DNA of 64,000 nucleotides from a virus (IMGVR_UViG_3300000439_000009:1-64000), one strand, 5' to 3'. Shown: positions 3,001 through 41,393, numbered from the stretch's first letter. Notes: a model not told the origin generated them from the sequence alone. Numbers and translations are program-made.

Positions 3001-3868
3001 TTTTTGCAGTTAAAATTGCATTATCTCTATTTGTAGTTTCTATTGCTATGGCTGAATTACGATCTGTTACTTCATTAGAAATTGCATCATCTGTATAAGC
3101 TTTTGCAGATGTTAATGTGGTTGTTGCGGAATTTGTTATAGCTGAATTTCTATCTGTAACCTCTGTAGAAATTTTACTATTTGTATAAGAATTTGCATTT
3201 GCTTGAGCATTTGTAATTTCCTGCAAAATAGTTGCTCCAAAGGATGCGTCATTGCCCAAAGCATCATCAATTTTCTTTAATGTATCTAATGTAGATGGAG
3301 CAGTAGAAACTAAAGCAGATATAGCGGAATCAGTATATCCTTCTGCTGTAGACAAAGATGCTGAAATAGCTGCATTTCGATTTGTAACTTCAGTAGCGAT
3401 TGCAGAAGATATTGCTGAGTTGCGATTTGTTACCTCTGTAGCAACTTTTGAATCAACATATCCTTCAGCAGTTGTTATAGCATTTGTTACGGCTGTTGCT
3501 CTTGCTGATGCTTCTGCAGAAACTGAATTATCTGTGTAAGACTCTGCAGTTGTAATTGCATTAGATATATCAGATGAAGTTTGTGATCCTAATGATGAAA
3601 GATCTGCAGCATTTGCTGCTGTGTAGCCTAAAGCTGTATTCACATCAGATGCTGTAAGCTGTGATCCTATACCAGATGCAACTGCATCTGCCAACTCTGT
3701 TGGGGTAACGGTAGAATAAGGAAGTGCTGTCCAAACTGCTGATCCCGTTCCAATTTTAATTTTATGAGTATCTGTCTCATAACCAGCTTCTCCAGCTGCT
3801 AATGTGGGATTTACGGAAGTCCAATCTGATGCTGTACCTCTACGTAGTTGAATTCTTACTGTTGACAT
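1..3868 (-). CDS. Long tail fibre/receptor-binding protein (partial, runs off window) with Mtd-N-like N-terminus and coiled-coil repeats
   Basis: Not in ORF track (no stop in window). ATG at 3866-3868 gives MSTVRIQLRRGTASDWTSVNPTLAAGEAGYETDT (major tropism determinant N-terminal-like motif), then many ~29-aa ESYTDSAISTEVTNRNSAIATAK repeats and G/T/S-rich fibre repeats; the frame at position 2 matches the start. Confidence 0.85.
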   Translation of the reverse strand, partial: MSTVRIQLRRGTASDWTSVNPTLAAGEAGYETDTHKIKIGTGSAVWTALPYSTVTPTELADAVASGIGSQLTASDVNTALGYTAANAADLSSLGSQTSSDISNAITTAESYTDNSVSAEASARATAVTNAITTAEGYVDSKVATEVTNRNSAISSAIATEVTNRNAAISASLSTAEGYTDSAISALVSTAPSTLDTLKKIDDALGNDASFGATILQEITNAQANANSYTNSKISTEVTDRNSAITNSATTTLTSAKAYTDDAISNEVTDRNSAIAIETTNRDNAILTAKTQAISSAESYTDAAIATEVSSRNSAISTQASSTLSSSESYTDSKINTEISNRNSAVATAKTEAITAAENYTDTAIATEVTNRNSAISTSLTNAESYTDSKISTEVTNRNSAIATALSTAESYTNSSVSSATSTIESYTDSAISTEVTSRNSAIATAKSEAITAAESYASGLASNYDAAGSAATAKNDAKSYTDTAISTEVTNRNSAIATAKSQAITAAESYADGLATNYDPVGSSADAKTYADGLISIEVTNRNSAILTAKNQAVSTAEGYTDNAISNLVNASPATLDTLKELADAIGDDPNFATTVSSHIATAKADAEAYTDSSIATEVTARNSAISSAVATGKAQAISTSEAYTDTAISNEVSNRNTAIATSLSTAESYTDTAKNAAISTSETYTDTAISTEVTNRNSAILTAKNQAISTAEGYTDTAISTEVTNRNSAIATSLTTAENYADTAKSSAISISEGYTDTAVSNEVTNRNSAIATAKSEAISTSESYTDTAISTEVTNRNSAIATSLTTAEGYTDTHAAKSTGTHGVSGTIVGTSDTQTLTNKTISGSSNTITNIANSSLAHPGITLGSTAVNLGDTVTDVSVSTIETSGDMSVGGNLIISGNATITGNVDIKGTTTTVEATNLQITDSIIYLSDGQYSADAVEIGFYGAYGTTGGNASNHKHTGLIRNHSDKTWYLFSNGIEPGNATVDLSTVTFDALKLDHVIGNLTGNVTGNVTGNVTGNVSGNAGTVTNGVYTTDTGTVTSTMIADGTIVDADINASAAIAKTKISGTAVTQADTSTVTNTMLAGSIANSKLSNSTISGVSLGSNLNSLTIGTGLSGTSYNGSGAVTIANTGVLSVNGSTGAVTGIATTASPTFTGTVTLPLTTAGYVTTSSSGVISSVATIPNAGLTNSSTTIGTTAISLGSSSTTLAGLTSVTSTGFTGALTGNVTGNADTATKLATARNINGVAFDGSAAITITAANPNALTIGTGLSGTSYTGSGAVTIAID

Positions 3869-4286: not shown

Positions 4287-4358
4287 TTTCGGTTCACTAT
4301 CCCCTAAAATTTATATTTTGTGTGGGGGATTTTAAGGATCCCCCTAACCTTTAAATTA

Positions 4359-5900
4359 CTAGTCTGCCCAGACTATTACTGAACCAGATGCTACAGCTTC
4401 AACACTTGTATGTCCAGCTGTTGGTGCAACTGTTAATGAAACAATTCCACCTGAATATATTGCTGAAATATCAGCAAGCGATCCATTTGTTGTAACAATT
4501 GCATATTCTGTAATGGCAATATTATTTGCTGAATCACGAGCAATCAAAACCTCTGATGCCTGTGAATGAACGCCATCTCTTACGTGAACAGTTAATTTAG
4601 CTGTTCCATAATTTGAATTCCAAGCTACTGGAACAAATGTTGCACCAGTTGATGTGCTGTTCCAACCAGAAATTAACTCTGTGTATCCGCCAACATTTAA
4701 AGCTTGGTATGTTGGTGTTGCACTTGAATTACCATTTGAAACAAGGCTATCTGCATAACTTTCTGCAGCTGATTGAGCTGAAGAAGCAGATCCTGCTGCA
4801 TCATAATTTGATGCTAGTCCGTCTGCATATGATTTTGCAGCATTTTCGGCTGTTGTAATGGCAGAATTACGATTTGAAACTTCTGTGCTGATTGCTGAGT
4901 CTGTGTAAGACTCGGCTGCTGTGATAGCTTCTGATTTAGCTGTAGCAATTGCCGAATTGCGGCTTGATACCTCTGTTGAAATTGCAGAATCGGTGTAAGA
5001 CTCAGCGGTAGCCTGTGCTGTTGCAATATCTGTAAGAAGAGTTGTTGAAAAATTAGCATCATTTGCTATTGCAGCATCAATTTTTGCCAAAGTGTCAAGC
5101 ATTGATGGAGCCATACCAACAAGATCAGAAACTTTTCCGTCTGTGTAAGTATTTGCAGCAGAAATTGCTTCTGTCTTCTTGGTGTCAGCATAAGATTCTG
5201 CATTTGCTTGCGCATTTGAAGCTGCTGTATCAGCATATCCTTCTGCATTAGACTGTGCGGTTGAAGCAGCCCCTGCTGGATCATAGTTGCCAGCTAGTGA
5301 ATCTGCATAACCCTGAGCAGCTGACTGTGCAGCTGATGCTGCACCTGCTGCGTCGTAATTAGATGCTAATGAATCTGCATAAGATTTTGCATCATTTTTT
5401 GCAGTTGTAGCTACGCCATCTGCATAAGACTGAGCTGCTGATTGAGCTGCTGATGCAGCACCATTTGAATCATAATTTGAAGCAAGAGAATCAGCATAGC
5501 TTTGGGCAGCTGACTGTGCAGCTGATGCTGCGCCTGCTGCGTCGTAGTTTGATGCTAATCCATCTGCGTAAGACTGTGCTGCAGATTGGGCTGCTGATGC
5601 TGCGCCTGCTGCGTCGTAGTTTGATGCTAATCCATCTGCGTAAGACTGTGCTGCAGATTGGGCTGCTGATGCTGCGCCATATGCATCAAATACGTTTGAA
5701 TTGACTGAAAGTTTGCCTGAGCCATCTACGTTAAATACTGCTGTATCAACTGATTTAACAAGAGTTGTACCGCCAATAAGACTTAGGATGTATGAATCGC
5801 TTGCTGATTCTGTAAGAATATTATTACCATTGATTGTACCTGTGGTACCTTCAACAATTAACCCATTCTTAATTCTAAAATTTTTATCTACTGTTGCCAT
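4359..5900 (-). CDS. Tail fibre-like protein with Ala/Ser-rich coiled-coil repeats
   Basis: 24-aa AAGAASAAQSAAQSYADGLASNYD repeats; APSMLDTLAKIDAAIAND motif typical of phage fibres. Confidence 0.75.
   Translation of the reverse strand: MATVDKNFRIKNGLIVEGTTGTINGNNILTESASDSYILSLIGGTTLVKSVDTAVFNVDGSGKLSVNSNVFDAYGAASAAQSAAQSYADGLASNYDAAGAASAAQSAAQSYADGLASNYDAAGAASAAQSAAQSYADSLASNYDSNGAASAAQSAAQSYADGVATTAKNDAKSYADSLASNYDAAGAASAAQSAAQGYADSLAGNYDPAGAASTAQSNAEGYADTAASNAQANAESYADTKKTEAISAANTYTDGKVSDLVGMAPSMLDTLAKIDAAIANDANFSTTLLTDIATAQATAESYTDSAISTEVSSRNSAIATAKSEAITAAESYTDSAISTEVSNRNSAITTAENAAKSYADGLASNYDAAGSASSAQSAAESYADSLVSNGNSSATPTYQALNVGGYTELISGWNSTSTGATFVPVAWNSNYGTAKLTVHVRDGVHSQASEVLIARDSANNIAITEYAIVTTNGSLADISAIYSGGIVSLTVAPTAGHTSVEAVASGSVIVWAD
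5521..5678. repeat. Exact 72-bp tandem repeat (2.2 copies) inside fibre gene
   Basis: gctgatgctgcgcc recurs at 5521, 5593 and 5665 with identical intervening sequence. Confidence 0.9.
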
Positions 5901-5926
5901 GTGGGGTGTTGCTCCTTGTTTTTATT

Positions 5927-6472
5927 TTATTTTTTTAAAGCTGTTCTGAGAAACCTTACGGATACAGAACCTGATATTGGGGTTACTACTAAACTTATTA
6001 TACTTCCATTATACACAAAATCAAAGTTAGCGGGATTTGCAAGATTATCTCTAGAAGATATAATATTTGATTCTGATACATTTGCTCCACTTGGAGTAAA
6101 CAAAACATTTAAATCTGCAGCATAAACATCTGAGCCTTTAGTTGCTTGAATTTTATACTGTGCAGATTGCCAATGATTTGTATCTAAAGTATCTATAACT
6201 GTTGGGTTTTCTATGCCATAAACTTCTAAATCATTATTGCCCTGAAGACCAAGAACTTCTACTGTAGTAGTCCCGCCAGCTGCTTCAAGTTGTGCAACTT
6301 TATAATCAAGTGAATTTGGGTTTGTTGATCCGTCAACACCAACTTTTGCTTCTAAAGCTTGTATTGCAGTATTTGCAATTATATGTTGTTCTGAATGTGA
6401 AGGATTTGATAAATTATCTGTAGCGTTAGGATTAACTATTGAATCTAAATTTTGAGGGAATTGACTAGTCAA
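5927..6472 (-). CDS. Virion/tail protein
   Basis: HSEQHIIANTAIQALEAKVG motif; C-terminal beta domain similar to the C-terminus of 4359..5900. Confidence 0.6.
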   Translation of the reverse strand: MTSQFPQNLDSIVNPNATDNLSNPSHSEQHIIANTAIQALEAKVGVDGSTNPNSLDYKVAQLEAAGGTTTVEVLGLQGNNDLEVYGIENPTVIDTLDTNHWQSAQYKIQATKGSDVYAADLNVLFTPSGANVSESNIISSRDNLANPANFDFVYNGSIISLVVTPISGSVSVRFLRTALKK

Positions 6473-6809
6473 CTATTCCACCATCCAAGGGTAATGAATT
6501 TGTAAAGCCTGGAAGCATAGTAGGCGGAGAAGAAACTGTTCCACCATCTGCACTTAGCTCTATGTTATCATTAATCTCAGATAAAGGCAAAGCAATTGGG
6601 AATATTGTTGAAACATCTCCATCGTAATTATGTGTATGTTCGTAAAATGGAATTGGATCATCTGATTTAATTATTGTAACCCAAACTGTACCATTGTGAA
6701 TTCTAATGCTTTTATCTTGAGTATTAAAATACATGTCGCCTTCTTTTCCAACACTTGGGTCATTTGATGCTGTCATCAAATTTAAAGGCGTTAAGAATTT
6801 TTTAGACAT
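6465..6809 (-). CDS. Small tail-associated protein
   Basis: GDMYFNT...IRIHNGTVW fibre motif. Confidence 0.55.
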   Translation of the reverse strand: MSKKFLTPLNLMTASNDPSVGKEGDMYFNTQDKSIRIHNGTVWVTIIKSDDPIPFYEHTHNYDGDVSTIFPIALPLSEINDNIELSADGGTVSSPPTMLPGFTNSLPLDGGIVD

Positions 6810-6861
6810 GTATCTCCAAAGATGGGGGGAATTAGCTTTCCCCCCATTATATCATTTTTTA

Positions 6862-8583
6862 TTATCCTACGATTACTACTTCGTAGGTTGTTCCAGCTGT
6901 TGGCGGTACACCCATTCCAATTGTAATTGCATTTGTAGATATTCTAGTCATATCTACTTCTACATCCGCCCATTGTGTATCTGGGGAACCAGAAGATTGA
7001 TAAACTTGAACCATAACAGAACGCTTACCTAAATTATGAGTAATTGTAAATGTATCTGTTGTTCCATCGCCAGAAATAGATCCTACATATTTAGATGTAA
7101 GAGCAAGAGATGTAACTAAATTATCAGCATAATTTTCTGCAGTTGTGATTGCATTAGATATATCTGTAGAAGTTTGATTTCCAAATGTTGAAAGCTGAGA
7201 ATCTGTATATCCTTCTGCTTCTGTAATAGCTTCTGATTTGGCTGTTGCTATAGCAGAATTTCTGCTTGTTACCTCTGTAGAAATTGCTGAATCTGTATAG
7301 CTTTCTGCTGTTGCTTGAGCAGTAGCAATATCAGTTAAGAGGGTTGTTGAAAAATTAGCGTCATTAGCTATAGCATTATCAATTTTTTCTAATGTGTCAA
7401 GAAGAGATGGTGCCATTCCGACAAGATCTGCAACCTTTGTATCTGTATAAGATTTTGCATTGTTTTCAGCTGTTGTTGCCGATCCTGCTGGATCGTAATT
7501 TGATGCTAGTGAATCTGCATAAGACTTTGCAGAATTTTCAGCATTTGTTGCTGCTGTATCTGCATAAGATTGTGCAGCTGTTTGAGCTGATGATGCGGAA
7601 CCTGCTGGATCATATGCGGAATTTGCACGAGAAACTTCTGAAGAGATTGCTGCATCTGTGTAAGAATTTGCTGAATTTAAAGCATTTGTTGCAGCTGTGT
7701 CTGCATATCCCTCAGCATTTGACTGTGAGTTTGAAATATCACTAATTGTTGCAATGCGGTTGTTTGCATTTTTTGAACCAATATAAGCAGTTCCATCTGG
7801 ATTGATAACAATATCTCCAGAAGATGATGTAATATTTACATCATTAACAGAAATAAGTTCTAATTCATAGCCAGAGGCTATTGCCATATGACCAGTGTTA
7901 TTATCTACACTGATTGTGTTTAGATTACCACCTGCTCCGCCACCAGACTGGAAGTAAACATCACCTAAGAAAGTTTTATTAGAAAGGTTTTGTGTTCCAG
8001 TTTCTGTTACATAACCAGTTAAATCTGAATTTATGTCTCCGAGTGTTGCAATTTTATTGCTTCCATCAATTAATGGTGTTCCAAGATATGCATAGTCACT
8101 TCCTGGAAGAAGTACAATATCATTATTTGCGGTAAGTGTTAAATTATTTCCATCTGTAGAAATAGTTTCTGTTTTTGCACTACCAAACTTAATACCGCCT
8201 TTTGTACCATCTGTAAAACCTCTAATGCCAACAAAATTTGCAACATTTATATCACCAATATAAGCATCGTTGCCTACAAGAATATTTGTTCCATTACCAT
8301 CGTCATTTGTAGTAATTCTGCTGAACACTGGAGTAGTTGTGAAATCTAACGATCCATTTGTTACTGTAAAGAAATCAGAATTAACTGCTGATATATATTG
8401 AACTCCAACTGGTTCCCAGTTTCCTGTTCCAGATCCTGTTGAGAAGTAAAAAATACCATCTACGGTATTGTAGTATAGCTGACCTGCCGTCAAAGCACTA
8501 GGAGCAGAGGCGGAAGGTTGGATAGCAGCATTTAAAAGCTGATTACCCTTAAGATTAATATTTGTTAAGTAAGTTTTTGCCAT
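6862..8583 (-). CDS. Tail fibre-like protein, paralogue of 4359..5900
   Basis: GQLYYNT motif; near-identical VADLVGMAPSLLDTLEKIDNAIANDANFSTTLLTDIATAQATAESYTDSAISTEV block; C-terminal ITHNLG...VQVY domain. Confidence 0.75.
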   Translation of the reverse strand: MAKTYLTNINLKGNQLLNAAIQPSASAPSALTAGQLYYNTVDGIFYFSTGSGTGNWEPVGVQYISAVNSDFFTVTNGSLDFTTTPVFSRITTNDDGNGTNILVGNDAYIGDINVANFVGIRGFTDGTKGGIKFGSAKTETISTDGNNLTLTANNDIVLLPGSDYAYLGTPLIDGSNKIATLGDINSDLTGYVTETGTQNLSNKTFLGDVYFQSGGGAGGNLNTISVDNNTGHMAIASGYELELISVNDVNITSSSGDIVINPDGTAYIGSKNANNRIATISDISNSQSNAEGYADTAATNALNSANSYTDAAISSEVSRANSAYDPAGSASSAQTAAQSYADTAATNAENSAKSYADSLASNYDPAGSATTAENNAKSYTDTKVADLVGMAPSLLDTLEKIDNAIANDANFSTTLLTDIATAQATAESYTDSAISTEVTSRNSAIATAKSEAITEAEGYTDSQLSTFGNQTSTDISNAITTAENYADNLVTSLALTSKYVGSISGDGTTDTFTITHNLGKRSVMVQVYQSSGSPDTQWADVEVDMTRISTNAITIGMGVPPTAGTTYEVVIVG

Positions 8584-14962: not shown

Positions 14963-15514
14963 ATGTCTGAATTCTGGGAAAGCTTAGAAGATCATGATGA
15001 AGCCCTAGATGCAATCCTTACAGGATATAAGGGCGATGCGATCAATATGCCTGTCTATGGCGAGGTTATAGATAATTTACGACATGCGGGATCTATATTA
15101 GATTTCGGATGCGGGGCGGGGCGTAATTTAAAGTACCTCATTGATCAATATGAAGTCGTATATGGCTATGATTATCCTAATATGCTTAAGTTTATACCAG
15201 ATGAGATAAAGAGAGCTAATAAGCTCTTATTGTTGGATAATATAGATAGCGTCCTTATAAGGAATTATGATGAAGTATTATGTTCATTGGTATTGCAGCA
15301 TATACATCCTGATGAGCTGCATGAAATATTGAGAGAGCTGTCGCTACACTCCCGCCGATTTATTATTCATTCAAGAACATGGATAGATTTTACATTTGAA
15401 GATATTTTACCTATCTTGGAAAAATACTTTATTGTTGATACAATAGAATATCAGATAGATCCTAATTCTGATCGAGATGATCATTTTATAGGAGTATTTT
15501 TACCAAGGAGTTAA
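14963..15514 (+). CDS. Class I SAM-dependent methyltransferase
   Basis: ILDFGCGAGRN, VYGYD, LVLQHI. Confidence 0.85.
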   Translation: MSEFWESLEDHDEALDAILTGYKGDAINMPVYGEVIDNLRHAGSILDFGCGAGRNLKYLIDQYEVVYGYDYPNMLKFIPDEIKRANKLLLLDNIDSVLIRNYDEVLCSLVLQHIHPDELHEILRELSLHSRRFIIHSRTWIDFTFEDILPILEKYFIVDTIEYQIDPNSDRDDHFIGVFLPRS

Positions 15515-15913: not shown

Positions 15914-16150
15914 TTTTATCCCGCCTTTTTAGATCCTAATTATATCATATGTCGTTTTTGTACCCCCTACGTCGTATTTCAAATTCAGAAAATGTTAATA
16001 TTTTTTTTATTTGTATGATCCACGTTTCAAAGCAAAAAGCAATTAGACATAGTGTGCCCATTTGTCTAATCAATTCGGACATTTCGGACACAAATGACTA
16101 GTCAAAGAAAAAATAAATTTCGATTTGTCCTGATATGTCCGTTTTGCGAC

Positions 16151-16179
16151 TTGATTTTTTGGGATTTTTCTGCCATACT
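16151..16179 (+). promoter_or_regulatory. SigA-type promoter opening the early region
   Basis: TTGATT-17-CATACT with TG extension. Confidence 0.55.
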
Positions 16180-16228
16180 TAAGGTATTAGAAAGTTAAGA
16201 AAGGTTCTTAACAAGAAAGGATCAGAAA

Positions 16229-16369
16229 ATGATCACTGTAGAATATGTAGAGTATCTAGATTGCCCTACCTGTAAGGTTCCTGTCCTAGTAGATCAGGAA
16301 TACACTTCACCCGCCCGAATTCTGATAGAATGTCGGAATTGTCTAGATGTGAGCGGAATCACACTCTAG
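16229..16369 (+). CDS. Small Zn-finger protein (46 aa)
   Basis: GAAAGGA RBS; CPTC...CRNC. Confidence 0.55.
   Translation: MITVEYVEYLDCPTCKVPVLVDQEYTSPARILIECRNCLDVSGITL
16348..16363. promoter_or_regulatory. CRP/GlxR box 1
   Basis: TGTGA-GCGGAA-TCACA; promoter TTGATT-17-TAGTAT at 16385-16413. Confidence 0.75.
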
Positions 16370-16529
16370 ATACGGCGTGTCGAGTTGATTTTCCCGACTT
16401 AGTGTGATAGTATTCCACTATACAAATTAAATATAGAAAAATCCTAGTGAGCCTCTAGCAATAGAGCAAATAATCTAGGCAAGGAAAATAGTTAGCACAA
16501 GGCTAACGAATTAAAGAAAGGTTCATAAT

Positions 16530-17401
16530 ATGAACACTATAAATAAGAGTAACAGCCTCCATACTGTTCCCGCCAATTCTACTACCTGCTTATTCTGTAA
16601 AGAATCAGTAGTATTTAGTAAAGGTCTGCGTGCTTGGCAGACTACTAACGGACAAGGTAATGTCCGTTGTTACTTCACTGTGGAGGTAAATAACTAATGA
16701 TTATTCTAACCTATATTGTCCGTACTGTTATGGCACTAGCGTTTGTGCCAATGTGTTACCTAGTGTATGCTATGTATCAAGATTTAAAAACTATTGGAAA
16801 GGATAACTAAATGACTATGACTTACTCATTTGAAAAAAAGTTTGACCCTTGGGCTATCGAGCCCGATGTATTTGATCTGCTTATGGCAGAAGAAGCCGAG
16901 GCAGAAAATGCCAAGGTTAATAATGAAATCTCTATTGAAGATATAGAGGATAGTGAAGTAGAGTTTGATGAGGAATTCGATCTCTAATGCTACACTTCAT
17001 AACTAAAGCACACTACTATGCCCCGCACTTAGTACACGCCCCGCATCATATTGCTTGGCTAAAATCCTCAATTAAACTAACCCACCACTACACACGATAG
17101 GAATTAAATAAATGATGAGCCGTAAAGACTACATAAATGTAGCCGATATTCTAAACGAAAACAAAAATCGAATTGACTCAGAAGTTTTTCACGATCTAGT
17201 AATTGACTTCTCGGATTTCTTTTTTGCAGATAATCCCAACTTCTCGCCAAATCGTTTTGAATTGGCTTGCTATGGAAATGATGAGGGAGGGGATGTAAAG
17301 TAATGGAAGACATTCTCGGATTCTCAAATGCAATCGAGCTGGATCACTTAAATGATGAACAGTTAAAAATCGTTGAAGATATTTTCAAAGATTTTAAATA
17401 A
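16530..17401 (+). CDS. Run of six small early genes (16530..16697, 16697..16810, 16811..16987, 16987..17100, 17112..17303, 17303..17401)
   Basis: Mostly TAATG-coupled ORFs, several with RBSs; 16811..16987 is strongly acidic; 16697..16810 is hydrophobic. Confidence 0.6.
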
Positions 17402-17503
17402 ATAAAAAATGCTCTGAAGTAGGTATAAAATACTTACTTCAGGGCAGGGGCGCGGCCCGATTTGTACCCTTTGTTACGATATGTCCGAATTTCTCCCGAG
17501 TTT

Positions 17504-17519
17504 TGTGAATTTAATCACA
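17504..17519. promoter_or_regulatory. CRP/GlxR box 2
   Basis: TGTGA-ATTTAA-TCACA; promoter TTGATA-17-GATAAT at 17561-17589. Confidence 0.75.
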
Positions 17520-17622
17520 TAGTCTGAGCGTCTCACTATTTAAGATACTCCCGAGTATACTTGATAGTAGCGATATTTTGTGAGATAATACTATTATTAG
17601 AAAATAAAGAAAGGTGGTCAAA

Positions 17623-17817
17623 ATGACTACACTAAATAAAGTAAATATCGGAAAAACCCTTGGAATTTCCGCTAAATTAGAAAATCAAATCGTTCACGAA
17701 TTTAACAATGGTGGATGTACTTCTTCTTATGGCTTATCTACGCCTCAGCGTATAGCCTTATTAAAAATCCTATTGGGTGGAAATGCCCCTAAGTGTGAGT
17801 GTATTCTCTGCCTCTAA
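17623..17817 (+). CDS. Hypothetical early protein
   Basis: GAAAGGTGG RBS; C-terminal CECILC. Confidence 0.6.
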   Translation: MTTLNKVNIGKTLGISAKLENQIVHEFNNGGCTSSYGLSTPQRIALLKILLGGNAPKCECILCL

Positions 17818-17833
17818 AGCTTTCCCCGCCCAA

Positions 17834-17855
17834 TGTCAGTGGGCTATGCTATAAT
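17834..17855 (+). promoter_or_regulatory. PafBC-type (RecA-NDp) promoter 1
   Basis: TGTCAGTG-GGCTATGC-TATAAT. Confidence 0.8.
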
Positions 17856-17886
17856 AAATCCGTTAAACAAAAGAAAGGAAGTTAAA

Positions 17887-18442
17887 ATGACTTCACTAAA
17901 AATAAATTGCCAAGAGTGTGGCAAATCCTGCGGAGAGATTTCCGTATATGACGCTCCTTATACTGGGGCAACTACTTGCTGGGAATGCACTTTTAAAAAT
18001 TGCGATCTCTGCTATGGTCAAGGTATCACTGGCTGGGTTAGCCCTGATGGTGATTTTGATTTTGATTATTGCGAATGCAACCCACTTTGCCTAACACTAG
18101 AGGAGGTCAGATAATGACTAATAAAACTACTTTTGAAGTTGCTTGCTTATACTATGAAATTTGTGGTGCAAGCCAAACTTTTGACTCTGCTGAAGAGTAT
18201 GACATCTATGGCGATGACTATGTCTGCCCTGAATGCTATGACCAACAAGAAATGGGAATGTATGGGTGGGCAGACTCAAGCGATGCCTTTCCAATGTCTC
18301 TAGAATATGACGAAGGGTGATATATATGAATCTAGACGAATTTAAAACTTATGTCCAAAACAAGCGTGAGGAATCACGCCTTAAAGGAATGTCAGTGCTA
18401 TCTGCTACAATAACAACCTCAAACCCGAAAGAAGGAAAATAA
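17887..18442 (+). CDS. Three small early genes (17887..18114 Cys-rich, 18114..18320 Cys-rich acidic, 18326..18442)
   Basis: RBSs GAAAGGA and GGAGG; CxxC motifs. Confidence 0.65.
18390..18411 (+). promoter_or_regulatory. PafBC-type promoter 2
   Basis: TGTCAGTG-CTATCTGC-TACAAT. Confidence 0.8.
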
Positions 18443-18443
18443 T

Positions 18444-19265
18444 ATGAAAATGCACGAACTCGATACAACAAACTGGAATGCTTATCCTTTCACAGTTAAT
18501 GGAATTAATTATGTCTCCAAGGTAAAGCCTGATTCTACAATGGCTATGCGAATTTCTCGTGTGCCTGCTCAGATCTTTATTTCTATGAATGAAGATTGTG
18601 TCCGAGAGTTAATCGGTAATGTAACTTCTCCGTCTCTATTAGTTGCAAAACTCTATGAGGTAAATGAAAATGCTAGCGAAGCCGTTATCGAAATTGTCTG
18701 ATAAAGTCCGCCGTATACAGGAGTTAAGGCGTAGCAATTCTGCTACGCCCATCCGCAACAAGAAAAAATATACCCGTAAAACAAAATACAAAAAGGAATA
18801 CTAATATGTCAAATATCTCTACCGCCCTTGCTATCCAAGAAGCCTGCTCTAATGCTGTTTATGCATATGAGTCAATGGAAGTTGCTGCAGAAATTGCACA
18901 ACAAACTGATTTTAATCCTGCCGTCTTGCAATTGTTAATGAAGTACACTGCAATTTTAACTGCAGGCGTTGCAACTAATATGACACAGGTTCTGATGAGT
19001 GAATCTGATTTTAATCATATGATGTCAGAAATGCGTGAACTCGGAGCATTCGAAGGGATCGAAGATGAAAACTAAACTACAGGGCCAAAACATTTTTACA
19101 GAAATTATTTCTGATTATCTTGGCGTAACAATGGACGTTGCATTAATTGTACAAGATGAAATTGATGAAGGTGATTATTTAGATTGGTCCGAAGCATCCA
19201 TTGAAGAAATTGAATTTGCTGCAATGTTAGCTTTTGAAAATTTAAATGTAGATCATAAATTTTAG
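18444..19265 (+). CDS. Four small early genes (18444..18701, 18694..18804, 18806..19075, 19065..19265)
   Basis: Closely coupled ORFs, several with RBSs. Confidence 0.65.
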
Positions 19266-19408
19266 CTGCGACGGGTAGAGAGAATGCAATGGGTCCAGGG
19301 TGGGCCCATTGTTTAAATATGCAAAGCAATGCATAAAGATGCAGGGGCCGCGCCCCGTCAAGCCGACACGCCGTTACGAATGGTCAAAAAAAACTCTGAC
19401 CAGTCAAA

Positions 19409-19424
19409 TGTGATGTGATTCACA
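19409..19424. promoter_or_regulatory. CRP/GlxR box 3
   Basis: TGTGA-TGTGAT-TCACA. Confidence 0.75.
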
Positions 19425-19473
19425 CAACCTGAGCGTCTCATATGCTGGAATTACTGGCTAGTAGGTAGAAAAA

Positions 19474-19495
19474 TGTCGGTGGTGTCGTGTATAAT
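19474..19495 (+). promoter_or_regulatory. PafBC-type promoter 3
   Basis: TGTCGGTG-GTGTCGTG-TATAAT. Confidence 0.8.
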
Positions 19496-19531
19496 TCCAA
19501 CTATTAGAAACAAAGAAAGAAGGTAGCACTT

Positions 19532-20577
19532 ATGCTAATCTCACAAGCCCTAGAAGGCAAATATGTAAAGTCCTCAAAAGGACAAGGCATAATCCAATAT
19601 GCGGATTTCCGTAGAGATATGGAACACTCAACACCCGAAGGTTATCTTGCGTTTGCTTGCAAGGTTCGCCCTACTTATAATCCATCTGTGCATAGATTTA
19701 TTCCAGAAGATTTTTGGACAACAGTTTATGTAGGCATTGACTCAGAATTGGTGGACTAATATGACTATTAAACTTGGTGGGCTAGGGCAGACTATTTCTG
19801 CCTATTGCCCAGTATGCTCAGAAAAGATGACCCATATGTGTATTGCTACACTTGGTGGATTTTCTACTAAAGGTACTATTCGCTATGCGTGGGAATGTAA
19901 TGCTTGCGAATTATCTCTAAAGTCTGACTCAACAGGCTATGCTCACTTACTAACAGAAATGGCTTACTATGCTTAATGAATTAGATAAATTGTGGGAAGA
20001 CTATAAAGAAGCCACTTGGAATACAATGTCGGTGGCTCCTGCTACAATATGGGAAACAAAGGAGAATGACTAATGTATAAACTCACTACCGCCTATGATG
20101 GACAAGCCCCGCATCATACTATCCAATTAGCCGATGCACTCGAAGCGTTTAACTCTTTCGCTAGATGTGTAGACTGGGGGTTCGCTAATGAATATGCGAC
20201 CTATAATCTATCTATGCCAGATGGCAAAATGTATACAAAGAACTTCTATCGTCCGAAAGGTAAATAATTAAATGGGAATAAATATGGCAACAGAACTAGC
20301 AGATGGAACACTTGGATTAGATATGGAAAGTGCTATTGCTATGCACTTGCGTGTTAATCACTATCCTCCCGTACCGACTTCTATGGTGCAGCCTTGCATT
20401 GATGCTATTGATGCATATTGGGAAGAAGACTTGGATCGTAATATCGAATTGCCCGAAGGCGTACTATGGCGAGGAGAAACTTATGCCCCCGCTTATGCAA
20501 TTATCGAAAGTCATCATCTCCAAGCTTGGTGCTCAGAAGATGAGTACCTTAATGAAGTAGACCCAGAGGACTACTAA
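19532..20577 (+). CDS. Five small early genes (19532..19759, 19761..19976, 19969..20073, 20073..20267, 20272..20577)
   Basis: Closely coupled ORFs, several with RBSs. Confidence 0.65.
20027..20048 (+). promoter_or_regulatory. PafBC-type promoter 4
   Basis: TGTCGGTG-GCTCCTGC-TACAAT. Confidence 0.8.
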
Positions 20578-20594
20578 ACTAAATATAATTGTCG

Positions 20595-20610
20595 TGTGAT
20601 GTAACTCACA
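20595..20610. promoter_or_regulatory. CRP/GlxR box 4
   Basis: TGTGA-TGTAAC-TCACA; promoter TGGACA-18-TAAAAT at 20632-20661. Confidence 0.75.
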
Positions 20611-20695
20611 CACGACACGCCCATAGCCAGTTGGACAAAGGTTGGCTGGCTATGGTAAAATACCACCTATAACAACAACAGAAAAGGAAAAAACA

Positions 20696-20860
20696 ATGAC
20701 AATCGGAACAAACACATATCAGGTAGGCGACCTCTTTACCACACAGAAGTCAAAGGTAACTGGCGTTATCAAGGCTATCGAGCCTATCAGCGACACAATG
20801 ACTCGTGTCTTGCTTGATGTAGACGGCGTAGAGCGTTTTACAACAGTTACACTTGCTTAA
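20696..20860 (+). CDS. Small SH3/KOW-like beta protein, paralogue A
   Basis: TYQVGDLFTT...VTG.I...PIS...TRV shared with 21440..21610. Confidence 0.7.
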   Translation: MTIGTNTYQVGDLFTTQKSKVTGVIKAIEPISDTMTRVLLDVDGVERFTTVTLA

Positions 20861-20888
20861 TTAAATAAGTATCGGCTACCCCCACCAA

Positions 20889-20910
20889 TGTCGGTGGGGG
20901 GTGCTATAAT
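20889..20910 (+). promoter_or_regulatory. PafBC-type promoter 5 (overlaps a hairpin)
   Basis: TGTCGGTG-GGGGGTGC-TATAAT; accccccacc...ggtggggggt inverted repeat. Confidence 0.8.
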
Positions 20911-20951
20911 AATCTCTCAAACAACAAACCCGAATAGAAAGTAGAAAACAA

Positions 20952-21368
20952 ATGGCTAGAGCAATCTCCGTTAAAGTAGCAACACCAAAAGTAATTGCTG
21001 CACTAGAATCAAAGTTAGCAGAACTAGAGGCTAAACTTGCAACATCAACTGCAAACGAGGAAGCATACCAAACTGCTTACAAGCAATATCAGACACAGTT
21101 ACAGAACTATTGTGTTGCAAATATCTCACAGGCAACTAACTTCCGTGTATCACACCGAGCATATAATAGTCTAGTGAACATTGACTATGATGTTCCAACT
21201 AACTTGGCTGGATTCCCAGTAGAGCCAAAGCGTGATTTCGAGGTTGTGTATGAACACACAATTACTTCTGCAAGAGAAGAAATCACCAATGCACTTAACA
21301 TCTTGCGTATGACCGACGAGGAATATGTTTCTGCCTCAACTATGAAGTCAATCGCTTCATACCTCTAA
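20952..21368 (+). CDS. Hypothetical early protein
   Basis: 138-aa ORF directly after promoter. Confidence 0.75.
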   Translation: MARAISVKVATPKVIAALESKLAELEAKLATSTANEEAYQTAYKQYQTQLQNYCVANISQATNFRVSHRAYNSLVNIDYDVPTNLAGFPVEPKRDFEVVYEHTITSAREEITNALNILRMTDEEYVSASTMKSIASYL

Positions 21369-21439
21369 ATAAGTAACGACCTGAGCCAAGTCGCTAAACT
21401 GGCTCACACTATAACCCGAATATAGAAAAGGAAAAAACA

Positions 21440-21610
21440 ATGACACTACAAGGATACACATATCAGATAGGTGATCTATTCACAACATCTCGCACAGGTG
21501 TTACAGGTCGCATCACAAAGTTTGCACCAATCTCAAATAAAGTAACACGAGTTCAGTTGCAATTAGCAAATGGCGCAAAGCGTTTTGCAATGGTAAAAAC
21601 TTCTGCGTAA
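21440..21610 (+). CDS. Small SH3/KOW-like beta protein, paralogue B (56 aa)
   Basis: MTLQGYTYQIGDLFTTSRTGVTG...; same agaaaaggaaaaaacaATG leader as 20696. Confidence 0.75.
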   Translation: MTLQGYTYQIGDLFTTSRTGVTGRITKFAPISNKVTRVQLQLANGAKRFAMVKTSA

Positions 21611-21821
21611 ATAAATAATTAGCGGGTCGTGAGTGATAACAGGTAAGTGTCTAAGTAGCCTTAGACCACCCGCTTAATTTTAATTTGACAAAATGTGCAG
21701 CTGGGGGCGCGGCCCGCCCGAAATGTCCGTTTTACGAAGACACTCCCAAATCTCTGAGTTTGACAATGACCAGTCAAACATTGTATACTTCTCCGATGTC
21801 CATAATAATCATAGTGCCCCT

Positions 21822-21837
21822 TGTGATGTTAATCACA
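21822..21837. promoter_or_regulatory. CRP/GlxR box 5
   Basis: TGTGA-TGTTAA-TCACA. Confidence 0.75.
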
Positions 21838-21896
21838 CCCATTGTCTTAGTTGTCGGATTTGTCGCTTTTGTTAAGACTCTCCGTATTAAATAGAT

Positions 21897-21926
21897 TTGA
21901 CTAATGTCGGTGGGTTATGCTAGAAT
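21897..21926 (+). promoter_or_regulatory. PafBC-type promoter 6 with additional -35
   Basis: TTGACT-AA-TGTCGGTG-GGTTATGC-TAGAAT. Confidence 0.8.
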
Positions 21927-21955
21927 AAGGCTTCAACAACAGAAAGAAGGTTCAC

Positions 21956-22990
21956 ATGAACAACACCGTTCATAAGTCCGAAGTAGAGAATGGTTCTGTA
22001 TCATTCGCTCTTGTGGATTCCCGCTCTAATCCTGCATGGCACTCTTATGCAAATAAGATTTTCGATGCAGATACAGAAACCCCAACAGTATCAGAAATTA
22101 TGGATGCTGCTAAACTATCTAATTGGAATGTACGCCTTGAGCCTATCTCCGAATTAGTCCCCGACTATAAGATGGTTACAGAATCTTATCTTGTCGTGCG
22201 TGATAACCCTTACACCGACGGGCAGAAAGATGTTCTCGCCACAGTAGGTTCACGCTATAAAGAAGTGCAGAATGAAGATTTGTTTGCATTCGCACAGAAT
22301 CTTCATGACTCTAATCCAGAAGTCAAAATTGACTCTGCTGGTTCATTCAAGAATGGTCGTGTAGTTTATGGCTCATGGTCTATTCCTAACCAGTTAGTTC
22401 TTGATCCATCTGGTGCTAATGATATAACTAATCTTTATTTAGTTGTTCACACTTCACACGATGGTTCTGTCGCTATTCAAGCAGGTATCACGCCTGTGCG
22501 TGTTAAGTGCCAAAATACACTTAATTTCGCTATGCGTCGTGCTAAGCAATCTTTCAAGATTCGCCACACCGCTACTGTTGATGGCAAGATCGCTGCTGCT
22601 CGTGAGGCTCTAGGTATGTCGGTTGCATACTTCGATGAGTTCTCTAAGCAGGCTAACGAATTGTTCACTCGTGAAGTAACGAATGCACAATTCAGCAACA
22701 TCATCAACACTCTTTACCCTAAGCCAGAAGAAGATAAAAAGGGTGCTATCACTAAGTGGGAAAATAAAGTTGTCCTGCTTGATGAGTTGTACCATAACTC
22801 TCCTACTAATGCTAACATCAAGGGTACAGCATGGGGCGTTGTTAATGCTCTAACTGAGCGTCTTGATTACTTCCGCACTGCTCGTAAAGGTTCTAACGAA
22901 TCTCTCGTTTATTCTGCTTCAGGATTTGATCCTGTTATCACGGCAGAAAAAAATAAAATTGTTAAGCAAGTGTTATCACTAACCGCTTAA
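21956..22990 (+). CDS. DUF932 / TIGR03299-like phage-plasmid protein
   Basis: PAWH, VGSRYKEVQNEDLF, SHDGS, TPVRVKCQNTL, IRHT, GTAWGVVNALTE motifs. Confidence 0.85.
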   Translation: MNNTVHKSEVENGSVSFALVDSRSNPAWHSYANKIFDADTETPTVSEIMDAAKLSNWNVRLEPISELVPDYKMVTESYLVVRDNPYTDGQKDVLATVGSRYKEVQNEDLFAFAQNLHDSNPEVKIDSAGSFKNGRVVYGSWSIPNQLVLDPSGANDITNLYLVVHTSHDGSVAIQAGITPVRVKCQNTLNFAMRRAKQSFKIRHTATVDGKIAAAREALGMSVAYFDEFSKQANELFTREVTNAQFSNIINTLYPKPEEDKKGAITKWENKVVLLDELYHNSPTNANIKGTAWGVVNALTERLDYFRTARKGSNESLVYSASGFDPVITAEKNKIVKQVLSLTA

Positions 22991-22996
22991 TAAATC

Positions 22997-23018
22997 GTGA
23001 GGGGCGAAAGCCCCTCAC
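22997..23018 (+). terminator. GNRA hairpin after DUF932 gene
   Basis: gtgaggggc-gaaa-gcccctcac. Confidence 0.6.
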
Positions 23019-23025
23019 CTCTCTT

Positions 23026-23099
23026 GATTCTATAGATCAATTGGTTAGATCGCTACCCTGTCACGGTAGAGGTTGCGGGTTCAAGTCCCGTTAGAATCG
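23026..23099 (+). tRNA. tRNA-Asp(GUC), copy in early region
   Basis: Acceptor GATTCTA/TAGAATC, anticodon arm CTACC-ctGTCac-GGTAG, T-arm GCGGG-TTCAAGT-CCCGT. Confidence 0.92.
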
Positions 23100-23100
23100 C

Positions 23101-23208
23101 ATGGAAAATAAAAAAGTTGTAATATGTCCAAAGTGCAAAGCTGAAATCCAGGTGCGATCAAACTTTGCACACGACACGCTGAATAATCACTTGACAAAAT
23201 GTAAGTGA
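23101..23208 (+). CDS. Tiny Zn-finger-like ORF (35 aa)
   Basis: CPKC...H...H...C; starts immediately after the tRNA. Confidence 0.4.
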   Translation: MENKKVVICPKCKAEIQVRSNFAHDTLNNHLTKCK

Positions 23209-23221
23209 TGGGGGCGCGGGG

Positions 23222-23237
23222 TGTGAGTAAAATCACA
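23222..23237. promoter_or_regulatory. CRP/GlxR box 6
   Basis: TGTGA-GTAAAA-TCACA. Confidence 0.75.
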
Positions 23238-23324
23238 ATTACGAAGGGGTATAAAATCTCCCTAAAGTTAGACATTAAGATGATATATGTCAAACCCTTT
23301 ACGATTAAACAAGTATAGGCTATG

Positions 23325-23354
23325 TGGACAAATGTCAGTGGGGTATGCTAGAAT
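23325..23354 (+). promoter_or_regulatory. PafBC-type promoter 7 with additional -35
   Basis: TGGACA-AA-TGTCAGTG-GGGTATGC-TAGAAT. Confidence 0.8.
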
Positions 23355-23385
23355 ATGCCCTATAACTACGAACAAAGGAGATATA

Positions 23386-24102
23386 ATGCCAAACTGGGTT
23401 TATAATGGTCTTACTATTGAAGGTAACCCTGAATCTGTAACTAAATTAGTTAATCAGATGAATCAACCATATACACGTCATTTTGAAGATGCGTGGGATA
23501 TGAAGACTAAGACTATGGGTCCACAGGATGTTACTTATTCTAATCCTGTATTTGCTTTCTGGAATATCATTAGTCCCACCGACCTTGATGCATATGTAAA
23601 GCAACCTGACCATTCCCTGCCTATTCAAGAAGCATTGCTATTTAAAGGCGACCATTGGTACGACTGGAATGTACGTAACTGGGGCACCAAGTGGGATGTA
23701 GCCGTATCTGATGACAACGAGCATCCTGAGACATATATGGAGGGCCCTACAGAAAACGGTGAGAATCTAGTAGTCTACTATAACTTTAATACTGCTTGGT
23801 CTCGCCCAATTTCTGCTTTAGAGAATTTATCTGCACAGTACCCTGACCTTCTACTTACTTTATCTTATGAAGAAGAGACAGGCTGGGGTGGGGAATGTGA
23901 ATTCCTGCGTGGTAAATATATTGCTGGTTTAGAATATGAAACCAAGTGCAATGAATGTGATGCATATGACTGTATGGAGTATTGCGAAGATTGCGAAAAT
24001 GATGTATGCTCTGTTTGTAGTTTTGGGGCAGAGGAAGAGTGTCAGTCCCATATGGTAGAATCAGAACTTCCGCCTAAAGTACAAGTTACGAAGAATGCAT
24101 AA
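23386..24102 (+). CDS. YubB/DUF1281 ferredoxin-like domain protein
   Basis: MPNWVYN, WYDWNVRNWGTKWD, FNTAWS, YEEETGWGG; AAGGAG RBS. Confidence 0.8.
   Translation: MPNWVYNGLTIEGNPESVTKLVNQMNQPYTRHFEDAWDMKTKTMGPQDVTYSNPVFAFWNIISPTDLDAYVKQPDHSLPIQEALLFKGDHWYDWNVRNWGTKWDVAVSDDNEHPETYMEGPTENGENLVVYYNFNTAWSRPISALENLSAQYPDLLLTLSYEEETGWGGECEFLRGKYIAGLEYETKCNECDAYDCMEYCEDCENDVCSVCSFGAEEECQSHMVESELPPKVQVTKNA
24040..24061 (+). promoter_or_regulatory. PafBC-type promoter, one-mismatch copy
   Basis: TGTCAGTC-CCATATGG-TAGAAT. Confidence 0.55.
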
Positions 24103-24731
24103 TGGAAAAGCTAGTTTCAACTAAGTATACCTTTGTATGCGATCCTGATTATTGTGATTGTTTAATTGAACTTACTACATCGGATAAGTTTGGATTTCCC
24201 GCCACTGTGACAAACATCACATGCCCTTGCGGGCGTGTCTTGGAACCTTTGTCAGTGGTAGATGCTACAATACTCCCTATAACCGAACAGAAAGAAGAAA
24301 CAATGGAAACCATGCAGGAGACCTACAACCCAAATGCTTTGGTCACTTACAAGAAGATTGTAGATGGTCAGGCTGAATATGTTACTACCAAGGTAACAGA
24401 ACTTGACTGGGCTATGGAACGTGCCCGTCAAGATGCAAAGATGGCTATGATTAGTTATGAGAAGGAAGTAGCACTCGAAGAACTAATTAAAGAGAACTAC
24501 CTTGAATCTGGTGATCAGGGAACTCTTCTGCAGATTGCAGAACTCTTTAGTATCTCATTAACTAAAGATGTTGAGTTTGTTGCAACTATCGAAATCTCAG
24601 GAACTGTTACAGTTGATCTAACTGATGAGGATGCTTTGCAGACTCTATTGGAAAATAGCGTACATGTTTCTTCATATGATGGAGATCTAGATGTATCTGA
24701 TTATGTATTAGTCAACTATGAGGAGCGTTAA
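24102..24731 (+). CDS. Hypothetical acidic protein; Cys-rich N-terminus and probable internal start at 24303
   Basis: Internal promoter and purine-rich RBS precede in-frame ATG 24303. Confidence 0.7.
   Translation: MEKLVSTKYTFVCDPDYCDCLIELTTSDKFGFPATVTNITCPCGRVLEPLSVVDATILPITEQKEETMETMQETYNPNALVTYKKIVDGQAEYVTTKVTELDWAMERARQDAKMAMISYEKEVALEELIKENYLESGDQGTLLQIAELFSISLTKDVEFVATIEISGTVTVDLTDEDALQTLLENSVHVSSYDGDLDVSDYVLVNYEER
24206..24271 (+). promoter_or_regulatory. Intragenic cassette: CRP box 7, GGCGTGTC box, PafBC-type promoter 8
   Basis: TGTGA-CAAACA-TCACA (24206), GGCGTGTC (24232), TGTCAGTG-GTAGATGC-TACAAT (24250-24271). Confidence 0.8.
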
Positions 24732-40488: not shown

Positions 40489-40524
40489 AGTATATCCTTT
40501 TATGTTAGTAGTTACAAGTTTTAG

Positions 40525-40597: not shown

Positions 40598-40598
40598 A

Positions 40599-40674: not shown

Positions 40675-40678
40675 TAAG

Positions 40679-40751: not shown

Positions 40752-40758
40752 AAACCTA

Positions 40759-41389: not shown

Positions 41390-41393
41390 CTAG

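Follow-up and report, generated by a model that had tools for sequence, protein, structure and literature searches.

Composite promoter cassettes with CRP/GlxR- and PafBC-type words in the small-gene block of a predicted freshwater actinophage

In lytic phages, the promoters of early genes are commonly portrayed as strong and nothing more. Repeated regulatory words are known from cluster A mycobacteriophages such as L5, whose stoperators consist of one asymmetric 13-bp word that occurs genome-wide in one orientation and is read by the immunity repressor, and lytic aquatic cyanophages borrow host nutrient-state regulators through NtcA and PhoB boxes, single-factor sites placed before individual genes. 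In the lytic Bacillus phages phi29 and Nf, sites for the host regulator Spo0A lie at early promoters, with an effect shown experimentally (PMC2731898), and T4-type phages carry promoter-early stem-loops (PeSLs), which are mobile regulatory cassettes (PMC2839356, PMC4122927). Among cellular systems, the RecA-NDp promoters read by PafBC have the consensus tTGTCRgtg-8nt-TannnT (PMC5656591), also written tGTCgg(N10)tA(N3)T with a -26 element at -23 to -28; PafB reads this element and PafC contacts sigma region 4 (PMC8635444). PafBC is switched on by single-stranded DNA (PMC11804915). The CRP/GlxR consensus is TGTGA-N6-TCACA (PMC7999487, PMC10187061). Here we analysed the gaps between small genes in IMGVR_UViG_3300000439_000009:1-64000, a stretch of 64,000 nt (hereafter the window) that comprises the first 64 kb of a 106,853-bp IMG/VR virus record with a CheckV completeness of 99%, and found that they carry positioned promoter cassettes which combine CRP/GlxR- and PafBC-type words.

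The words cluster between 15.9 and 24.4 kb, where about 12 cassettes lie among small open reading frames (ORFs) in 8.5 kb (Table 1). The palindrome of the phage is the exact CRP/GlxR consensus, and all seven boxes are perfect; the 8.5-kb region holds every one of the seven copies in the 106.9-kb genome. The core TGTCRGTG-N8-TAnnnT is an exact match to the PafBC consensus. The eight exact TGTC[AG]GTG copies, all on the + strand from 17834 to 24271, have the PafBC spacing without exception (8/8), and the genome holds no further copy of the full core. The other words were confined to varying degrees, with 4 of 4 genomic copies in the region for GGGGCGCGG (the GC box), 2 of 2 for TGAGCGTCTCA, 3 of 4 for TGACYAGTCA, 3 of 6 for TACT-N4-AGTA, 4 of 5 for GACACGCC and 5 of 6 for ATGTCCG. 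In five other near-complete genomes, all perfect CRP boxes fell in one segment of at most 7 kb, and a reversed-pattern control gave 0 matches.

Observed counts in the 8.5 kb were compared with the mean of 200 dinucleotide shuffles, which lay between 0 and 0.6 for every word counted above. The values were 7 versus 0.01 for the CRP box, 9 versus 0.18 for TGTCRG-N10-TAnnnT, 4 versus 0 for the GC box, 2 versus 0 for TGAGCGTCTCA, 3 versus 0.03 for TGACYAGTCA and 3 versus 0.11 for TACT-N4-AGTA. TTACGA (8 versus 3.8) was not significant alone in the window, so that TTACG is validated at the family level only: within 60 nt of CRP boxes, 116 copies read on the + strand against 6 reverse complements, and the copies were most frequent 5-7 nt upstream of the box. 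When the gaps were screened for k-mers without bias, the same words emerged together with CGACACGC(C) and ATGTCCG. A simple sigma-70 scan of the region gave 21 -35/-10 promoters against 26.5 expected; with no excess found, the ordinary consensus does not describe these promoters.

The reading that we favour, with moderate confidence and from the nucleotide sequence, is that host RNA polymerase uses the gaps as composite promoters, which are conserved in a large family of freshwater actinophages of ~100-110 kb and whose output is probably set by host CRP/GlxR and PafBC. A cassette begins just behind the terminator hairpin of the preceding operon; at its other end stand a core promoter and a ribosome-binding leader that the cassettes have in common. 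The usual core is a hybrid in which a PafBC-type -26 element, TGTCRGTG, stands exactly 8 nt before a TAnnnT -10 that also carries a TG extension, which could provide basal activity; some cores are ordinary -35/-10 promoters. Dimer-type operators stand upstream in fixed register. Host CRP/GlxR, responding to the cyclic AMP (cAMP) signal, and host PafBC, responding to the single-stranded-DNA signal through sigma adaptation, would then control how far each operon is expressed, the other words would contribute activation or repression through their own readers, and operons with different word sets would respond differently to the state of the host. The binding proteins, the sign of their effects and the early timing are what we infer in this model. 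A more far-reaching version is put forward tentatively, as possible rather than probable: that in a whole family of abundant lytic lake actinophages the takeover genes stand on enhancer-like promoters with plug-in slots and combinatorial logic, with a PafBC-type core (single-stranded DNA, DNA damage) gated by cAMP-CRP and at least three further dimeric regulators about two helical turns apart, operons rewired by word swaps in a rigid frame, and none of the readers encoded by the phage.

Conservation across relatives shows the frame most clearly. The DUF932 protein of the window (21956-22990), used as a query, retrieved 50 related IMG/VR loci with 99-50% identity, and in nearly all of them there was more than one perfect CRP box along with TGTCRG-type promoters. 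When the whole collection was scanned, TCACA-N5-TGAGCGTCTCA occurred on at least 119 viral contigs. The frame anchored on TGAGCGTCTCA consists of TGTGA-N6-TCACA, 5 nt, TGAGCGTCTCA, 10-11 nt, (T)TACT-N4-AGTA(AGTAGA), ATGTCRGTG-N8-TAnAnT and a AAAGAAAGG-type ribosome-binding leader. It spans ~90 bp, and from the CRP box to the -10 it aligned gap-free in 25 distinct cassettes of relatives and then in 133 in the wider scan. These 133 distinct cassettes, taken among the matches listed, included 120 with a full CRP box, 120 with TACT-N4-AGTA and 98 with a TGTCRG core, and their information content approached its maximum at the half-sites and all but vanished in the spacers.

Distances in the family, measured to the first base of the -10, were discrete. 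CRP box centres lay ~42, 52.5, 63, 73, 84.5 and 95.5 nt upstream, about one helical turn apart (best-fitting period 10.25-11.25 nt, a statistic inflated by orthologous copies). The centre of TACT-N4-AGTA lay at 32.5 nt, the start of GGCGTGTC at 34 nt, of GACACGCC at 41 nt and of ATGTCCG at 39-40 or 49 nt, the centre of TGAGCGTCTCA at 55 nt and the start of CGGACAT at 66 nt. Positions thus behave as slots: the one ~32 nt before the -10 (about -45) holds TACT-N4-AGTA, GGCGTGTC/GACACGCC or ATGTCCG, and the one ~55 nt before it holds TGAGCGTCTCA, in place of which some cassettes have CGGACAT starting at 66 nt. An in-place swap was seen in orthologous cassettes, where TTACGGCGTGTCG stands for TACT-N4-AGTA (loci L041 and L046). 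Fixed spacing, variable spacers and alternative words in slots argue for selected operators and against recent duplication.

The preliminary description had called the gaps modular mosaics of operators with little linear homology, and both statements hold. The words are short, positioned and selectively maintained, with a different combination for each operon. In the family, 472 distinct contexts match the PafBC-type pattern; 254 of these TGTCRG-type promoters are bare and the remainder fall into more than 40 word combinations, and orthologous promoters retain their own combination across phages. Cassettes A and B align gap-free from the CRP box, with 21 of 29 motif positions identical and 16 of 63 others (25%, the random level). 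Since the words are conserved and the flanks are at random identity, the cassettes are not copies of one recently duplicated unit, and BLAST between gaps returned short words only.

Less of the description survived for the individual gaps. It had proposed that six gaps reuse the series GC box, TTACGA, TGACYAGTCA, CRP box, TGAGCGTCTCA and TACT-N4-AGTA, followed by the promoter, in similar order. All the named words were found at their places, with a near-full set in two of the six gaps only; the description thus claimed too much for two of the gaps, yet at family level the pattern is stronger than it had stated. The gap at 19330-19500 has all six words in that order (19348, 19374, 19397, 19409, 19430 and 19452) and then the promoter (19474-19495), and the gap at 17410-17600 has a near-complete series without TGACYAGTCA. 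Four words and a promoter are present at 21680-21930 (GC box, TTACGA, TGACCAGTCA and CRP box), without TGAGCGTCTCA or the TACT palindrome, and three words and a promoter at 23190-23360 (GC box, CRP box and TTACGA), where the order is inverted and TTACGA follows the CRP box. In the gaps at 16040-16200 and 20590-20665 the full series was not found: the former has TGACTAGTCA alone from the list and the latter the CRP box alone. Two cassettes lie beyond these six gaps, one with the CRP box at 16348 and a promoter, the other inside an ORF at 24195-24271.

Upstream of the slots is a looser distal zone, which in the family contains CGACACGCC in either orientation, TTACG, TGACYRGTCA and DnaA-box-like words, and in this lineage also the GC hairpin. 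Among the multi-copy words of the family CGACACGCC ranks first (248 copies in 45 loci), and it occurs in both orientations. TGACYRGTCA occurs family-wide and often abuts the CRP box. The GC box is lineage-specific and not an operator of the whole family: it was found in a few lineages, at the 5' edge of the cassette behind the upstream terminator and beside CGGGCGTGTCG, with a 4-5-bp stem and a 3-nt loop. The orthologous DUF932 promoters of the 50 relatives illustrate both zones, with a kept core of CRP box, CGGACAT 26 nt further on and TGTCRG, and variable distal words (CGACACGCC in both orientations, TTATCCACA-like boxes, TGACYRGTCA and TTACG). Relatives often carry DnaA-box-like TTATCCACA words in their distal zones, with 99 copies across 45 loci (L010, L039, L046 and L050 among others); in the cassettes of the window TTGTCCACA is the only such word.

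With regard to the readers, Pfam profile searches detected no WYL, Crp-HTH (helix-turn-helix), cNMP-binding or sigma-70 region 4 domain in the phage, and no Pfam DNA-binding domain in 30 early ORFs. With no such domain detectable, host readers are the simplest explanation for the CRP and PafBC words, and these two are likely read by host proteins. In 156 distinct CRP boxes of the family, position 6 is T in 52%, G in 29% and A in 3%, and position 11 is A in 63%; these preferences are CRP-like and exclude Rex as the reader of the box. For TGAGCGTCTCA, TACT-N4-AGTA, TGACYRGTCA, CGACACGCC, ATGTCCG and TTACG, we found neither a known consensus nor literature, and the only papers that contained the motif strings had them in primers. 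DasR, LexA, FNR, Rex and NrdR were considered as readers of the other palindromes by their consensus sequences, and none fits. WhiA binds a GACAC core with WhiB as its partner; CGACACGCC contains GACAC, and its conserved word of 9-12 nt is far more specific than that core. The earlier proposal of a multi-input sensor built on host regulators is therefore supported in part, by the CRP/GlxR and PafBC words, whose consensus matches are exact; the other words have no matching consensus, and the sensor function is one that we infer.

Several points weigh against this reading. Most PafBC-type copies have a TG-extended -10, which could make these promoters PafBC-independent. The CRP period was not significant when each distinct distance was counted once, and, with the -10 taken to start at -12, the CRP positions are ~3 nt off those of classical Escherichia coli class I promoters. 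In the gaps TGTC occurs 3.8 times as often as expected (37 versus 9.8) and forms a core common to the -26 element, ATGTCCG, GTGTCG (CGACACGCC on the other strand) and TTGTCAAG; several words having one core, the inputs are possibly fewer than the words and the distinct readers may be fewer as well. About 30 small early ORFs, several with zinc-ribbon-like CxxC pairs, have no recognisable domain, and a phage-encoded reader is possible for the remaining palindromes.

Such a reader is the substance of the rival explanation that survives best, although we consider it unlikely. It holds that most words, especially TGAGCGTCTCA, TACT-N4-AGTA, TGACYRGTCA and CGACACGCC, are operators of phage-encoded early proteins that time or shut off early transcription (compare phi29 p4 and the stoperator repressor), in which case the cassettes would run a temporal programme and not sense the host. 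The orphan ORFs fit this explanation. So does cassette A, where the second TACT palindrome lies over the -35 hexamer, a typical repressor position, and this overlap suggests a repressor site. The CRP-N5-TGAGCGTCTCA composite, searched in 185,579 species-representative genomes, was found on two contigs only, both apparently misbinned phage, and thus gave no sign of host use. These contigs, L051 (JBBALJ010000057.1, in a 'Bacteroidia' metagenome-assembled genome, MAG) and L052 (CAIMCP010000002.1, in a 'Saccharibacteria' MAG), look like phage contigs misbinned into bacterial MAGs: they carry the cassette and tblastx matches to the early genes, their GC content is 34-35%, and L052 is up to 89% identical to 13.1-15.9 kb of the window. 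Against phage readers, the words are invariant across phages whose DUF932 proteins are only 50-63% identical, which fits a slowly evolving host reader better. An integrase, a recognisable repressor and an HTH protein were not found, and this rival gives no reason why the CRP and PafBC words should match their consensus sequences exactly.

In our preferred reading, that of promoters answering to host CRP/GlxR and PafBC, the cassettes also double as junctions for operon reshuffling between phages. Operon blocks are permuted between relatives, with breakpoints in cassettes B and C; for instance, 19420-21681 of the window matches 4301-6313 of relative L006, and 18326-19313 matches 6506-7712. The same canonical cassette stands ahead of at least five unrelated small-gene families, and hairpins adjoin promoters at 17410-17446, 19286-19312 and 20874-20905. 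With the PeSL precedent (PMC2839356, PMC4122927), these features might be read to mean that the main role is recombinational, the cassettes being mobile units whose short homologies serve operon swaps and whose words are kept mainly via spread. We regard this as quite improbable. Spread would keep the spacers too, yet these are at random-level identity, and the slots, the strand bias of TTACG and the apparent phasing of CRP boxes against the -10 indicate a role in transcription. A recombinational role is moreover compatible with a transcriptional one and complements rather than replaces it.

Little room is left for decoys, an explanation in which perfect CRP and PafBC-type sites titrate host regulators during phage replication and so blunt the DNA-damage or catabolic responses of the host; we rate it marginally below the recombinational one. 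Perfect-consensus CRP boxes are indeed unusual for regulated promoters (PMC10187061), and each genome has 7 CRP boxes and 8-9 PafBC-type sites. Decoys, however, need no fixed register, whereas these boxes stand at discrete distances from the -10, only upstream of genes on the transcribed strand, and every PafBC-type word has its -10 at precisely N8/N10. That the gaps encode structured RNAs (leaders or small RNAs), with the palindromes as RNA stems, is very improbable. Inverted repeats are many and strong hairpins lie at the 5' edges of the gaps, but Rfam found only a tRNA-Asp over 15-28 kb. The half-sites are invariant and the centres variable, without compensatory changes across the 133 cassettes among the matches listed; most words lie upstream of the predicted starts, and the strong hairpins resemble terminators of the upstream operons. 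Chance or recent duplication of one cassette can be dismissed: all that speaks for it is the frame common to cassettes A and B, and the shuffle tests, the 25% identity between words and the conservation of the words in more than 130 related contigs refute it.

Each of the published analogues (Spo0A sites, the PafBC promoter type and PeSLs) covers part of this architecture. Relative to stoperators, which likewise repeat a short word in the short intergenic regions of actinophages, the window has many words, some in both orientations and all in one block, and an integrase and a recognisable repressor were not found. The cassettes are stacked and multi-word, unlike the NtcA and PhoB sites of cyanophages. 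Compared with phi29 and Nf, the likeness is that a lytic phage has sites of a host master regulator at its early promoters, which ties infection to host physiology, here as predicted from sequence; those phages use a single host regulator without slots, whereas several distinct words are present here. With PeSLs the cassettes have in common a repeated promoter and hairpin between small variable early ORFs, at indel or rearrangement junctions and before unrelated genes. A PeSL consists of a plain sigma-70 early promoter and a terminator, in contrast to these cassettes of 100-350 nt with up to seven positioned operator words.

The likeness to the PafBC promoters of mycobacteria and other actinobacteria extends to the word, the spacing, the invariant GTC and, with a -10 beginning at -12, a position of about -28 to -21, and several phage copies lack a -35 (PMC5656591, PMC8635444, PMC11804915). 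No -35 was found at 17834 or 20889, and TTGACT or TGGACA stands at 18 nt for the copies at 21905 and 23333. The phage copies differ in occurring 8-9 times per genome on one strand in one block, in being mostly TG-extended, in having a fair -35 at 18 nt in some cases, and in having positioned operators upstream in many; host PafBC is a putative reader. The CRP boxes resemble CRP/GlxR class I promoters in the perfect palindrome, T at position 6, A at position 11, the A/T-rich centre and discrete distances about one helical turn apart (PMC10187061, PMC7999487). They differ in that all are perfect, that they are paired with a -26-element core and not a -35, and that some lie in coding sequence or within longer palindromes. 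A literature search found no published description of this cassette architecture or of a link between RecA-NDp/PafBC promoters and phage promoters.

If the favoured reading is correct, the energy and DNA-damage status of the host (for example starvation, or ultraviolet light in surface water) would decide whether infection proceeds in bacteria that are among the most abundant in fresh water, with a bearing on phage-host dynamics in lakes, and natural PafBC-type promoters would have been found for the first time outside the DNA-damage regulons of cells. The region would offer a compact, sequence-defined test bed for the combination of sigma adaptation with classical activators, and the remaining palindromes point to actinobacterial or phage regulators yet to be described. 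The slots and the shuffling junctions illustrate the joint evolution of cis-regulatory logic and gene content that is possible in phage genomes.

Table 1 Cassettes and promoters of the small-gene block, with positions counted from the first base of the window (RBS, ribosome-binding site)
Feature	Coordinates	Strand	Words and other elements	Core promoter and downstream signals
Cassette 0	15940-16228	+	CGGACAT 16076-16082 (- strand); TGACTAGTCA 16095-16104; ATGTCCG 16135-16141	sigma-A-type TTGATT 16151-16156, 17-nt spacer, CATACT 16174-16179; RBS; ATG 16229
Cassette at 16348	16348-16413	+	CRP box 16348-16363, overlapping the end of ORF 16229-16369; GGCGTGTC 16374-16381	TTGATT 16385-16390, 17-nt spacer, TG-n-TAGTAT 16405-16413
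Cassette A	17403-17622	+	terminator-like hairpin 17410-17446; GC box 17447-17459 (4-bp stem, 3-nt loop); TTACGA 17474-17479; ATGTCCG 17481-17487; CRP box 17504-17519; TGAGCGTCTCA 17525-17535; abutting TACT-N4-AGTA palindromes 17546-17557 and 17558-17569; no TGACYAGTCA	TTGATA 17561-17566 (overlapped by second palindrome), 17-nt spacer, TG-extended GATAAT 17584-17589; no TGTCRG element
Bare PafBC-type promoter	17834-17855	+		TGTCAGTG-N8-TATAAT, TG-extended -10
PafBC-type promoters embedded in small ORFs	18390-18411; 20027-20048			resemble 17834-17855
Cassette B (canonical)	19266-19531	+	terminator hairpin 19286-19312; near-palindrome TGCAAAGCAATGCA 19320-19333; GC hairpin 19344-19356; GACACGCC 19365-19372; TTACGA 19374-19379; TGACCAGTCA 19397-19406; CRP box 19409-19424; TGAGCGTCTCA 19430-19440; TACT-N4-AGTA 19452-19463	TGTCGGTG-N8-TATAAT 19474-19495; RBS; ATG 19532
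Gap 4	20578-20695	+	CRP box 20595-20610 within 28-nt palindrome 20590-20617; GACACGCC 20614-20621; second hairpin 20621-20655	TGGACA 20632-20637, 18-nt spacer, TG-n-TAAAAT 20653-20661
Bare PafBC-type promoter 20889-20910	20874-20910 (unit)	+	hairpin 20874-20905	-26 element in loop and 3' arm of the hairpin
Cassette C, before DUF932 gene	21611-21955	+	long terminator-like inverted repeat ~21621-21675; TTGACAAA 21685; GC box 21704-21716; ATGTCCG 21723; TTACGA 21732; TGACCAGTCA 21767-21776 (inside spacer of upstream promoter); CRP box 21822-21837; TTGTC repeats 21842, 21851, 21861	upstream: near-consensus TTGACA 21760, 18-nt spacer, TATACT 21784-21789; downstream: TTGACT 21897, TGTCGGTG-N8-TAGAAT 21905-21926
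Cassette D, after tRNA-Asp	23101-23385	+	CGACACGC ~23172; TTGACAAA 23191; GC box 23211-23219; CRP box 23222-23237; TTACGA 23239 and 23299; TTGTCCACA (- strand) 23323-23331, over the -35	TGGACA; TGTCAGTG-N8-TAGAAT 23333-23354
Cassette E, within ORF 24102-24731	24195-24271	+	CRP box 24206-24221; GGCGTGTC 24232-24239	TGTCAGTG-N8-TACAAT 24250-24271

Several cassettes represent recurrent classes. The cassette at 16348-16413 belongs to the commonest class of the family, with 52.5 nt from the CRP centre to the -10, and cassette E has the same CRP distance with GGCGTGTC starting 34 nt before the -10, also a recurrent geometry; an in-frame ATG follows at 24303. Gap 4 has its CRP centre at 53.5 nt and a fold z-score of -6.3. 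The variant of cassette A, with a double TACT palindrome and without TGTCRG, is conserved in five related loci (L001, L005, L021, L022 and L024), and a block of cassette 0 (TGACCAGTCA-AAGAAAAAATAA...ATGTCCGTTTTGCGACTTGA) is present again in four (L001, L016, L020 and L022). Complete PafBC-type promoters lie within small ORFs at 18390-18411, 20027-20048 and 24195-24271; the last has a CRP box and GGCGTGTC in the usual register, so that the same bases encode protein and operators. The -26 element of the promoter at 20889-20910 is within a hairpin, and promoter and stem-loop thus form one composite unit. At 17834-17855, ATGTCAG is flanked by GCCCA upstream and TGGGC inside the promoter word, a short inverted repeat. 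Terminator-like hairpins stand at the 5' edges of cassettes A and B and at 22997-23018. The 14-nt palindrome TGCATTGCAATGCA, present in cassette B as TGCAAAGCAATGCA, lies on the 5' side of cassettes in L024, L030 and L039 and may be one more operator. Cassette C has a short phased array of TGTC cores at 21842-21870, where three TTGTC 9-10 nt apart and then one TTGTT stand between its CRP box and its downstream promoter.

The block of small + strand ORFs at 12.8-27 kb is flanked by genes on the - strand that encode ribonucleotide reductase, a DnaE-type polymerase and structural proteins, and its gene size and promoter type suggest that these are probably early genes. The phage encodes WhiB (36059-36379, - strand), an accepted actinophage marker (PMC10202952, PMC10914622), which places it among actinophages; the homologues of this WhiB are all phage or metagenome proteins. 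Neither a tyrosine- nor a serine-type integrase was found in the phage, which fits a lytic phage. The low GC content of the phage (32-42%) and the lake origin of its relatives suggest a low-GC freshwater actinobacterium as the host, for instance one of the 'Ca. Nanopelagicales'. None of 50,697 GenBank phages matched the region in a megablast search, and the DUF932 protein matched only 50%-identical Streptomyces and Mycobacterium phage proteins. Streptomyces phage Samisti12 is without the cassette architecture, with one TGTCRG-type match in 14 kb.

Further genes of the window include a - strand protein of at least 1289 amino acids at 2-3868 with an N-terminal Mtd_N domain (major tropism determinant, E 2e-13), a possible candidate for a diversity-generating type of receptor-binding protein. 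A gene for a class I S-adenosylmethionine-dependent methyltransferase (14963-15514) lies at the beginning of the small-gene block. The tRNA-Asp(GTC) at 23026-23100 lies in the block between the DUF932 terminator and cassette D, and a second tRNA-Asp with six further tRNAs was found at 40524-41619 on the - strand. The paralogous small genes at 20696-20860 and 21440-21610 (54 and 56 amino acids) agree at ~80% of their first 64 nt, a stretch that takes in the leader, and each has its own upstream gap; in other phages, a homologue sits behind a canonical cassette (the MSVATATYKVGD... class).

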